32,046 nt of DNA from an archaeon (lineage in GTDB: Archaea; Nanobdellota; Nanobdellia; Pacearchaeales; GW2011-AR1), in the NCBI GenBank assembly GCA_030679115.1, contig JAUXTS010000021.1, forward strand, positions 1-32,046, written 5' to 3'. The position numbers were made by a program. This document shows positions 24,001-27,000 of this stretch, piece after piece. Position 1 is the stretch's first letter, and every line of letters begins with the position of its first letter.

Positions 24001-27000
24001 ATTGAAGAAATTTAAAATCCAAAAAGCCGCAACATCCAAATCTGGAATTGCTCCTGCAATTCCAGCAATTAATACATAATGCAATGGAAATTTCTTTCCC
24101 CTTTGGATATAATAGTCTCTGACTATGGACATCAAAATAAGTGGAATTAGTATGTGTGCTGCAGCTTGTGGCATATTTTACCTCTTATATTATTATCTAA
24201 TTCAGGTTTTTAATCCTTGCCCACACAATGTTTTAACTAGGCATAGGTAATCTTGTCTGAAAGTTCAAGTAAATTTGCATCCTTGAGATAAATATTTCTC
24301 TCGCCTTCGATCCTTAGTAGTACAACCTAACATTAATATTTCCTCCAATCTTCCAATAAAACAATATTTGATAAAACTCTATTAATTATAGGGGCATCTG
24401 AAAAATCCTTGCTTTTTATCATTCTCAATATTTCCTTGTCAATTGCAAGGCTTCTTAAATTTTCAAATTGTGATTTAAGAAGATAAAGACGAATTGTTGC
24501 ATTTATTCTATGGCTGATTCTCTGGAAAAAGTTAAAGTTTGCTTCTGTCTCATTTGCAAATCTGAAAGTATATCCTCTTGGAGCAGTTTTAAGTAAATTT
24601 TGCATATATTCTACACGTGGAGCCCAATATATCAAATCCAATTCAGCCAAATGTGCCTGCAAGCCTTCAGGAGAATTTTTCACCTTTTTTTCAGAAACTA
24701 AATTCCTATCCAGCCATCCAATTTCTTTTTCCCTCCCATCAATAAATTCTGTTCTAGAATCATATCTCAATCCATTAGTCACAATATATTCTATTCTTTC
24801 TTGTATTGCAGTTTGTTTCATTTATCTGTAAGACTTCTGCCTCTTAGCTCTTGCTTTAGAATCTCCAGGTTTTCTTGTTTCTTTTCTTCTTGCATCAGGA
24901 ACTATCATATTTCTATCATAATTCAAGAAGGCTTTCTTCAATGTATCCGAGCCGGTAGTTTTCAAAAGAGCCTTTGCAATAGCTAATCTTGATGCTTCTA
25001 TCTGCGCTTCTTTTCCGCCACTCATAGTTTTTATGAAAAAATCATGTTTTGGAAGCTCTCCAAATTCTCTTTCATAAATTCTAACAGGTTCAAGCAAGGC
25101 AAGTCTGTGGAACAATGATAATTCAGAAACAGGAAGATAATTATAGAAAATCTTTCCATTTCCAGGGTTCAATCTTAATTTTGCCACCGCAGTCTTTCTT
25201 TTTCCTGAAAATATTTGCTGAACCATTATAATTCTCTGCTTACCTCCGCTAAAGCCAAAGTTCTGGTTTTTAATTCTCTAATCATTTTAATCTTTTTTGA
25301 AGACTCATATTCTACGGGCACTTTATCATAACAAATTATTCTTTTGAATGCTGAAAGTCCTCTTTCCTGTGTATAAGGGAGCATTCCTCTTACAGTTCTT
25401 TTTACAATTCTTTCAGATGATTTTGGAAAATGCGGACCTTTACGGCTTGAACCTCCTCTTCTTCTCTTTTCTTTATATTCTCCAATAATAAATCTTTTTC
25501 TTCCAGTAATAAGCGCCTTTTCACAATTGACTATAATAATAGATTTTCCAAGAAGAGATTGTTTGGCTGCAAAACTTGCGAGTCTTCCTAAAACTGCTCC
25601 TTCTGCGTCAATTATTATTTTCTCACTCATTGTGGCGTTTTAATTCCCTCTGCTTTTGGATTTTTCTTTATTTCTTCAAGTATTGTAACTGCTTCAGATT
25701 TAGTTTTTTTCATTTTTTCAATTGCAGTTTTTGAAAATGAAAGCGCACAAATTCTCAATTTTTTTGTCAATTCTCCCTGCCCGAGAACTTTTCCCGGAAT
25801 TACAAGTGTATCTCCGGCTTTTGCATTTGCATCAATATCTGAAAGATTTGCAGAAATCTGCTTTCTTGTAGGTCCAGAAAGAACGTGGGATAATCTAAAC
25901 CATCCAGGATTTACTCTTGCTAATTTTATTGTCTCTACAAGTGCAAGGTCAGTTTTTCTGCTTGTTTTTTTCTTGATATGCGTCTTGCTTAATATTACTT
26001 TCATAATATTCTGTAAAAAATAGTATATATAAATCTAACTGCCCAAAAGTTTATTAACACATTTATACACACTAATGTATGAATAAGATTAGGATCAACA
26101 TAACTGTAGACAAAGATAATCTGGACAAGGCAAAGACTAAGCTGATGCTTTTTGGTGGAAAATTAAGCACATTGTTCAATGCATATCTTTCAGACTTTGT
26201 AAGCAGCATTGACAAGCAATTGGAAAGCAACCACAAGGTTCTTGAGGAAAAAAACAAAGAGCTTGAATCAAGGCTCAAGAAAATTGAGGAAAAGTTATCT
26301 AAGAAAAAATAATATGCAGGGAATAGTATTTATACAATAATAGCTTTTCTGAGGCATACAACTTTTCAAGTTGTAAGGTGAGAATCCTATCCTAATCTCC
26401 AATATCAAAGATATATGCGGGAAGGAGGATTTGAACCTCCGTAAGCACTAAGCTACGTCGGCCTTAACGACGCCCATTTGACCACTCTGGCATCCCCGCA
26501 AATCGCAGATTTGTGGGTACTGGGATTAATTCTCCCAATCCCTCAACCTGCGCTTATAATTATCTGATTATAAGGGCTTAAAAGTCTTTTCGGTTGGTTT
26601 ATTTTCTTTTAGAAACTACTTTGATTATCCTGCTCTTTTTTTCTTTTGGCTTTCTTGCATTTTTTCTAATAAAAACAATTAAAATAATAATTATAGCAAG
26701 AATAATTAATCCAATTTGAACAGCTTTTGTATTTGATTTTATAACATCCAATATGGCTCTTCCGCTGATTCCTCCAGCTGTTTCTCCTTCACTTTCTTCA
26801 ATAGCTTCTGTTTCATTAACTAATTCATTCACAATACTATCGCTTCCTTCATTATTCACAAGATTATTAACCACATTTTCATTTTCTGTATTTACAACAA
26901 CCTCTGAAGTTGTACGGCTTGAACCTCCACCGCCTCCACCACTGCTCGGAGCAGGAACAGGATTTTCCACAGGAATAGAATCAATCACAAAATTTCTTAA

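Follow-up and report, generated by a model that had tools for sequence, protein, structure and literature searches.

The window, meaning the whole stretch of 32,046 nucleotides that was analysed, comes from an archaeon of the Pacearchaeales family GW2011-AR1 (genome G000, 82% complete). It carries a tRNA gene with an AAG anticodon, flanked by a hairpin leader and a block of ribosomal protein genes, as follows.

26500..26553, minus strand: hairpin leader, abutting the 5' end of the tRNA gene and leaving the anticodon untouched
26416..26499, minus strand: tRNA-Leu(AAG) gene, 84 nt, intronless (ARAGORN, Rfam, cloverleaf fold)
26456..26472, minus strand: anticodon arm, stem CGUCG/CGACG with five of five pairs, loop U32 U33 A34 A35 G36 G37 C38
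26463..26465, minus strand: anticodon AAG, with A34 at window position 26465 (from the sequence and the ARAGORN call)
26441..26455, minus strand: long variable arm, with the same letters as in the tRNA-Leu(CAA) of this genome
25627..26004, minus strand: L18e-like gene (Pfam), in a block (24822..26004) that starts 411 nt downstream of the tRNA gene
25226..25630, minus strand: rpl13 (Pfam), in the same downstream block
24822..25226, minus strand: rps9 (Pfam), in the same downstream block

The ARAGORN call for tRNA-Leu(aag) spans 26415 to 26500 on the minus strand, with A34 at position 36 of the call, and the match to the Rfam tRNA family RF00005 scores 48.7 bits, above the gathering score of 29. 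Together with the fully paired anticodon arm, these results uphold the initial annotation of a canonical tRNA-Leu(AAG). The gene has a 7-bp acceptor stem, a 5-bp anticodon stem, a 7-nt loop with U33 and a purine at 37, and a T arm; CCA is not encoded. Its long variable arm and discriminator A73, which we take to be likely identity elements for LeuRS, make it a type II tRNA-Leu like the other leucine tRNAs of the genome, and it is identical to the CAA copy at 66 of 84 positions and to UAG at 71 of 84. A shifted anticodon reading UAA was excluded, because the fully paired stem around the 7-nt loop UU-AAG-GC fixes the register as AAG. No letter differs between window positions 25500 to 26501 and the DNA contigs of the possible source run, and pieces from a second study span the anticodon, with no variant at 26465 among the matches listed. 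The fold z-score of -1.8 adds nothing, and a scan for sigma-70-type promoters (two sites against 3.3 expected) is uninformative for an archaeal host.

Hairpin leaders of about 55 nt lie 5' of three leucine tRNA genes in the window (26500 to 26553, 11756 to 11809, and 19969 to 20017, all on the minus strand). The one before tRNA-Leu(AAG) has 96 to 98% identity with the leaders of Leu(CAA) and Leu(UAA), and a diverged copy precedes one Leu(UAG) on contig C49, upstream of position 15641. A kinship between these leaders and the tRNA-linked hairpin cassettes elsewhere in the genome is possible. Elsewhere in the window, an S13-S4-S11-rpoD block (17051 to 19240, plus strand) faces the L18e-L13-S9 block, the two being separated by tRNA-Leu(UAA), an integrase, and a DUF559 nuclease-like gene (19840 to 23600), an arrangement that suggests a rearrangement or an integrated element at a leucine tRNA. 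At 8002 to 10727 on the minus strand, adjacent CHASE2-adenylate/guanylate cyclase and FecR-domain genes form a signalling pair of bacterial type, here in the genome of a DPANN archaeon.

The leucine tRNAs found in G000 are CAA, UAA (with an intron), AAG, and two copies of UAG. Neither ARAGORN nor relaxed D-loop and variable-arm motifs revealed a Leu(GAG) or Leu(CAG) in this 82% complete genome, which agrees with the initial annotation that GAG is lacking, and tRNA-Leu(AAG) is the sole gene found there for a CUU/CUC leucine tRNA. Other boxes retain G34 (Gly GCC, Val GAC, Ala GGC, Arg GCG, Ser GGA, and Thr GGU); leucine apart, every four-codon box showing a purine-34 tRNA uses G34, and the only proline tRNA seen is Pro(UGG). 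tRNA-Arg(ACG), the usual bacterial substrate for inosine at position 34 (I34), was not found, and Arg(GCG) is present instead; a relaxed ARAGORN call of Arg(acg) on contig C19 appears by eye to be an intron-bearing GUU tRNA. A tRNA-Ile(UAU) with an intron lies on contig C15 (14728 to 14851), and no TiaS match was obtained in the 82% complete genome. CUC accounts for 914 of 178,049 codons (0.5%) and for 16.6% of CUU plus CUC. Across the family, a Leu(CAG) pattern matched only 5 of 151 genomes; it was also unmatched in 9 of 10 GAG genomes, and the idea that AAG caused the loss of Leu(CAG) was dropped. Threonine tRNA was GGU in 59 of the 60 family genomes that matched and AGU in one. A canonical tRNA-Thr(AGU) (L420, 242 to 313, on contig C1 of genome G069) is a second A34 tRNA beside Leu(AAG) in that genome.

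A single pattern that accepts either AAG or GAG had matches in 119 of 151 family genomes, G000 included, with 109 AAG, 10 GAG, none with both, and no hits in a backwards control (tallied by eye from 120 matches). The ratio is that of the initial count (76 to 6, never both), and AAG is indeed the normal state of the family, at roughly nine in ten matching genomes. The gene was matched in 29 of the 31 family genomes that are at least 90% complete, and G033, one of the two misses, is also AAG. In the order, 161 of 191 genomes matched; among the matches listed (150, from 147 genomes), 137 genomes were AAG and 10 GAG, and 14 further matches, all in family f4, lie outside those 150. Both states occur within genera g46, g74, g124, and g153 and within families f9 and f11. 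Outside the order, the rest of the class was surveyed with two patterns in 160 genomes, 77 of which gave no resolved state; among the matches listed, at least 50 were AAG, from 17 families, and at least 33 were GAG, so that the reported presence of AAG in other families of the class now extends to 17 of them.

The 3'-side pattern used in this survey also picks up Leu(UAA), Ser(UGA), and intron ends, and only rows of the right spacing were counted. When 16 of its rows were fetched, ARAGORN called Leu(AAG) for eight and Leu(GAG) for four; the others were a paired AAG arm without a call (G318), a miscalled gene with a stem intron (G408), a stretch that was too short (G304), and a false match (G326, contig C32). 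GAG-like rows of family f26 proved to be Ser(UGA) in all four f26 genomes checked. A strict AAG pattern, tuned to the class Nanobdellia and silent on other archaea, was also run on a collection with one genome per species, which may overlap the surveyed genomes since it is of the same kind. It returned 120 loci from 15 of 64 parts, or an estimated 520 or so overall. The anticodon was AAG in 119 of the 120, the exception (L176) being a chance match, and all the others were labelled Woesearchaeota, Pacearchaeota, Nanoarchaeota/Nanoarchaeia, Parvarchaeota, unclassified archaeon, or, for three, "bacterium." Viral contigs scanned with the AAG pattern gave no match. ARAGORN miscalled intron-bearing Leu(AAG) genes as Phe(aaa), Ser(aga), or Thr(agt) at L043, L045, L129, L137, L141, L149, L165, L182, L190, and L193, and annotation-based counts of A34 are therefore likely too low.

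Among 157 distinct AAG copies with fully paired stems there were 49 different stem sequences and a constant AAG. Stems that vary with pairing kept around a fixed anticodon indicate that AAG is probably under purifying selection. By tblastn, 71 of 123 AAG copies and 3 of 18 GAG copies with enough flank have L18e, L13, or S9 genes no more than 1.5 kb downstream; those three GAG copies all belong to the order and are three of the four GAG loci fetched there.

An RpoB tree (FastTree, midpoint root) was built from 79 genomes, 49 AAG and 30 GAG, with GAG deliberately oversampled; G317 (short) and G158 (no RpoB match) were left out. The AAG/GAG state changes 19 times on this tree, at least 15 of the changes being forced by well-supported branches, against a mean of 24.1 with shuffled states. 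All genomes of the order fall in a single clade, and because its deepest families (f5, f8, f4, f3, and f7) are all AAG, this is the parsimonious ancestral state of the order. The initial claim that AAG has replaced GAG across the order was too broad, as GAG has been kept or regained at about 12 nested places among the 48 order genomes of this GAG-oversampled tree. Nine GAG copies have in common the anticodon stem CUGCC, which is absent from neighbouring AAG copies, and eight of the nine sit in one subclade of 18 genomes. Given this shared stem, some switches may have come about not by point changes but by gene replacement, or by a single reversion with later regains.

Positions 34 and 38 change together. 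The 157 AAG copies have U32-C38 in 89 cases and C32-A38 in 41, and the GAG copies have U32-U38 in 15 of 23, many of these from one family. The shift at 38 is in the direction of a published link between position 34 and the 32/38 pair (PMC7293025), although U-U is not a Watson-Crick pair. The state also follows base composition: GC is lower in AAG genomes by 0.05 ± 0.013 (tree corrected, 61 genomes), with medians of 0.333 and 0.40; A34 prevails in AT-rich genomes where CUU greatly exceeds CUC and G34 is commoner in GC-richer ones. Family f30 (L094 to L103), the most AT-rich sampled at 22 to 30% GC in its loci, keeps Leu(GAG), with CUU at 3 to 5% of leucine codons; low GC alone thus does not force AAG.

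Codon usage was compared in long nonoverlapping open reading frames, roughly 9 to 65 kb per genome and the whole assembly for G000, and the tree-corrected set held 61 genomes after 18 of the 79 tree genomes with fewer than 2,500 codons were left out. In that set ln(CUC/CUU) was lower in AAG genomes by 0.48 ± 0.11, and other boxes had |z| values of at most 2.3. Within the order the difference was -0.33 ± 0.14, with |z| values of up to about 2 for the Asn, Asp, and Ile controls. AAG genomes had a higher CUU share of the CUN box (+0.34 ± 0.11, and +0.48 ± 0.12 in the 44 genomes below 38.5% GC) and a lower CUA share of leucine codons (-0.49 ± 0.15); the CUC share was not raised (-0.19 ± 0.13), and UUA was unchanged. 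In core genes the threonine box shifted by -0.55 against -0.57 for leucine, although threonine keeps G34; Thr(AGU), present in 1 of 60 genomes, was dropped as a cause. The U-ending share of alanine codons fell in AAG genomes (-0.33, z of -3.5). Hand-picked AAG/GAG pairs went in the expected direction in 11 of 15 cases, and same-genus or same-family comparisons, which excluded the chance match L176 and loci shorter than 8 kb, did so in 3 of 6. The signal is thus moderate and not fully leucine specific. It supports a working reader of CUU and leans weakly toward an unmodified, or bare, A34. In I34 Lactobacillales both CUU and CUC are gained at the expense of UUA, while CUA stays level (PMC13249217), but a lower CUC/CUU ratio alone cannot separate A34 from I34, because I34 would also lessen the CUC advantage of G34.

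A deaminase that could make I34 was sought against known enzyme families in these incomplete assemblies. The TadA model NF008113 was not passed at its cut-off in any of the 191 order genomes and was passed by 6 of 14 controls; weak matches occurred in 34 of the 191, the best at 108 bits. PF14437 matched 33 of 55 AAG genomes against 13 of 25 GAG genomes, and these two results together sustain the initial conclusion that no deaminase tracks AAG. TadA-fold proteins are patchy in AAG genomes and fall below the TadA cut-off, rather than being absent. The initial annotation reported no PF14437 member in three AAG genomes; G000 itself has one above the Pfam cut-off. Five AAG genomes of 95 to 99% completeness, picked for having no PF14437 match, gave no PF00383 match either. 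PF02137 (ADAT1/ADAR type) was not found in five of five genomes, and no control passed its cut-off. Thus no TadA or ADAT2/3 orthologue, which TadA/ADAT-dependent I34 requires, was found in the order or in G000. The deaminase of G000 lies outside the window.

Contig C13, 1360..1785 of locus L229: TadA/GuaD-fold deaminase (CDA fold), 141 aa, Pfam PF14437, the one CDA-fold deaminase of the genome

Its PF14437 score is 61 bits (cut-off 27), and it reaches 57 bits on NF008113 (cut-off 150; Escherichia coli TadA scores 335). It matches Aquifex TadA (1wwr, E value of 1.7e-14) and guanosine deaminase 7dqn equally well, and it has K, L, and D at the positions of N46, D108, and K110 of E. coli TadA, three residues with roles in TadA. 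By eye, an integrase-like open reading frame lies nearby, and a close relative occurs in genome G087 (L246). Thirty deaminase loci were fetched and 22 scored, eight long kinase-dCMP-deaminase-like fusions (by eye) being left out. None of the 22 passes the TadA cut-off: their best NCBIfam matches are ComEB/dCMP-dCTP deaminase, RibD, or weak TadA (at most 97 bits), several weak-TadA proteins look cytosine- or guanine-deaminase-like by eye, and the two best TadA-like matches (97 and 92 bits) are in GAG genomes.

LeuRS is not known to read the anticodon. We consider it probable that the gene encodes a working A34 tRNA, likely unmodified, that reads CUU. Such a tRNA would be charged normally by LeuRS, and bare A34 would read CUU by a Watson-Crick pair, leaving CUC to be read more weakly by A-C wobble, by tRNA-Leu(UAG), or by both. 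Because no enzyme would be needed and charging would be unaffected, lineages would be free to switch between A34 and G34, and the lability seen on the tree (19 changes, at least 15 forced) fits a trait needing no partner gene. Support comes from the gene itself, its conservation, the exclusion of GAG, the lack of a tracking TadA-family enzyme, and the codon shift toward CUU. In E. coli, tRNAs with an unmodified A34 are functional (bioRxiv 10.64898/2026.05.15.725136), and the unmodified tRNA-Thr(AGU) of Mycoplasma, which reads ACU, ACC, and ACG (PMC11066159), may serve by analogy as a functional model for bare A34. Unmodified leucine A34 variants in E. coli discriminate strongly against CUC (PMC11066159), and the persistence of CUC at 16.6% of CUU plus CUC in G000 counts against bare A34. 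Elp3 is present in three of four AAG genomes tested, so an unmodified, superwobbling Leu(UAG) cannot be assumed.

The strongest competitor, which we regard as unlikely, is that an archaeal deaminase with no relation to TadA/ADAT, the m1I57 activity being one example, turns A34 into inosine, so that the tRNA reads CUU, CUC, and CUA. It is to the same limited degree conceivable that the tRNA would act like the tRNA-Leu(IAG) of eukaryotes and Lactobacillales. Nearly all studied A34 tRNAs are inosine modified (PMC11066159), an archaeal tRNA deaminase for m1I57 (m1A57 deaminase) exists although its gene is unidentified (PMC7912444), and CUC is still used at 914 of 178,049 codons; the mostly nonpairing 32/38 bases of AAG copies, as in A34/I34 tRNAs (PMC7293025), fit bare A34 equally well. 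AAG genomes, however, have less CUA and no more CUC, unlike the I34 pattern, A34 is confined to one box, and with such frequent switching the enzyme would have had to persist or be reacquired again and again. A good deal less probable is that the patchy TadA/GuaD-fold deaminases, such as the one on contig C13, make I34 where they occur and leave A34 bare elsewhere. The 61-bit PF14437 score and the Aquifex TadA match of that protein speak for this, but its 57 bits lie far from the TadA cut-off of 150, guanosine deaminase fits it equally well, the three TadA positions carry other residues, an integrase-like frame lies near it by eye, and the best TadA-like proteins, whether among the scored loci (both in GAG genomes) or across the order (108 bits), fall short as well.

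We give still less credence to the tRNA being a near-dispensable spare, with Leu(UAG) reading all four CUN codons and position 34 drifting under AT mutation pressure. With Leu(CAG) in 5 of 151 family genomes, UAG already covers CUG; G000 has two UAG genes, the AAG/GAG state tracks GC, and yeast tolerates loss of Leu(GAG) (PMC8007984). Against this stand the gene's presence in 29 of 31 near-complete family genomes plus G033, its compensated stems, and the rise of CUU with AAG, though such a role is partly compatible with a working unmodified A34. An assembly error, a misread UAA anticodon, or a pseudogene might be suspected from a single metagenome-assembled genome whose Rfam score of 48.7 is below those of three other tRNAs in the window, but AAG in 109 family genomes and 119 of 120 collection loci, the register fixed by stem pairing, and the agreement of the raw contigs refute it, and we attach practically no weight to it.

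An archaeal tRNA-Leu(AAG) has precedents. Reviews state that archaea lack any ANN anticodons (PMC8007984, PMC11066159, PMC8879553), and a 2026 preprint counts 3 A34 among 10,517 archaeal tRNAs and treats the absence of unmodified A34 as a paradox (bioRxiv 10.64898/2026.05.15.725136). The premise of the initial annotation that A34 tRNAs are absent from archaea is nevertheless contradicted by Leu(AAG) in place of Leu(GAG) in ARMAN-4 and ARMAN-5, published in 2011 (PMC3239211), and in Ferroplasma acidarmanus, published in 2018 (PMC6000648). The switch itself is thus already known, if little cited. Literature searches turned up no account of its order-wide breadth, of its repeated occurrence, or of the codon shift, although subscription papers (e.g., Rafels-Ybern 2019) and preprint supplements could list such genomes; the available text of PMC13520502 does not mention A34 or inosine by those words. 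If A34 is bare, these archaea would provide unmodified A34 tRNAs in very large natural numbers, and since A and G have replaced each other repeatedly, even inside single genera, what A34 costs could be tested by comparing codon use. If A34 is instead inosine, its enzyme awaits discovery; should inosine at the wobble position be made throughout an order and in many sister families by an enzyme that has no kinship with TadA/ADAT, which we doubt, this would be the first archaeal I34 system and a third route to I34.

The ARMAN lineages are the closest parallel. Like G000, where the A34 gene is present and the synonymous G34 gene was not found (82% complete), ARMAN-4 and ARMAN-5 are ultrasmall archaea with the A34 version present and the G34 version missing, and they likewise have tRNA-Ile(UAU) without TiaS (PMC3239211). 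The available text of that report treats two genomes in one paragraph, without tests of modification, distribution, or codons, whereas the present case covers hundreds of species and mixed genera. F. acidarmanus fer1 shares the G-to-A change at position 34 of the Leu(GAG) gene and the absence of GAG, but there it is a species-specific recent gain with no codon effect (PMC6000648), whereas in the present case AAG is by parsimony ancestral for an order and comes with a moderate shift in codon use. The tRNA-Leu(IAG) of Streptococcaceae and Lactobacillaceae is likewise a clade-wide replacement of GAG by AAG in AT-rich genomes with altered leucine codon use; in those bacteria TadA makes I34, CUU and CUC are up, and UUA is down (PMC13249217), whereas here no TadA passes the cut-off, CUU is up, CUA is down, and UUA is unchanged. 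Mycoplasma tRNA-Thr(AGU) also places A34 in a four-codon box of a reduced, AT-rich genome, but it is bacterial, belongs to the threonine box, and has a measured unmodified state (PMC11066159), which here is inferred. Compared with the archaeal tRNA-Leu(GAG), the usual reader of CUU and CUC, tRNA-Leu(AAG) has the same body and, in common with three of four GAG loci of its own order, the slot before L18e-L13-S9; it differs in having A34 for G34 and, at position 38, mostly C or A rather than U.
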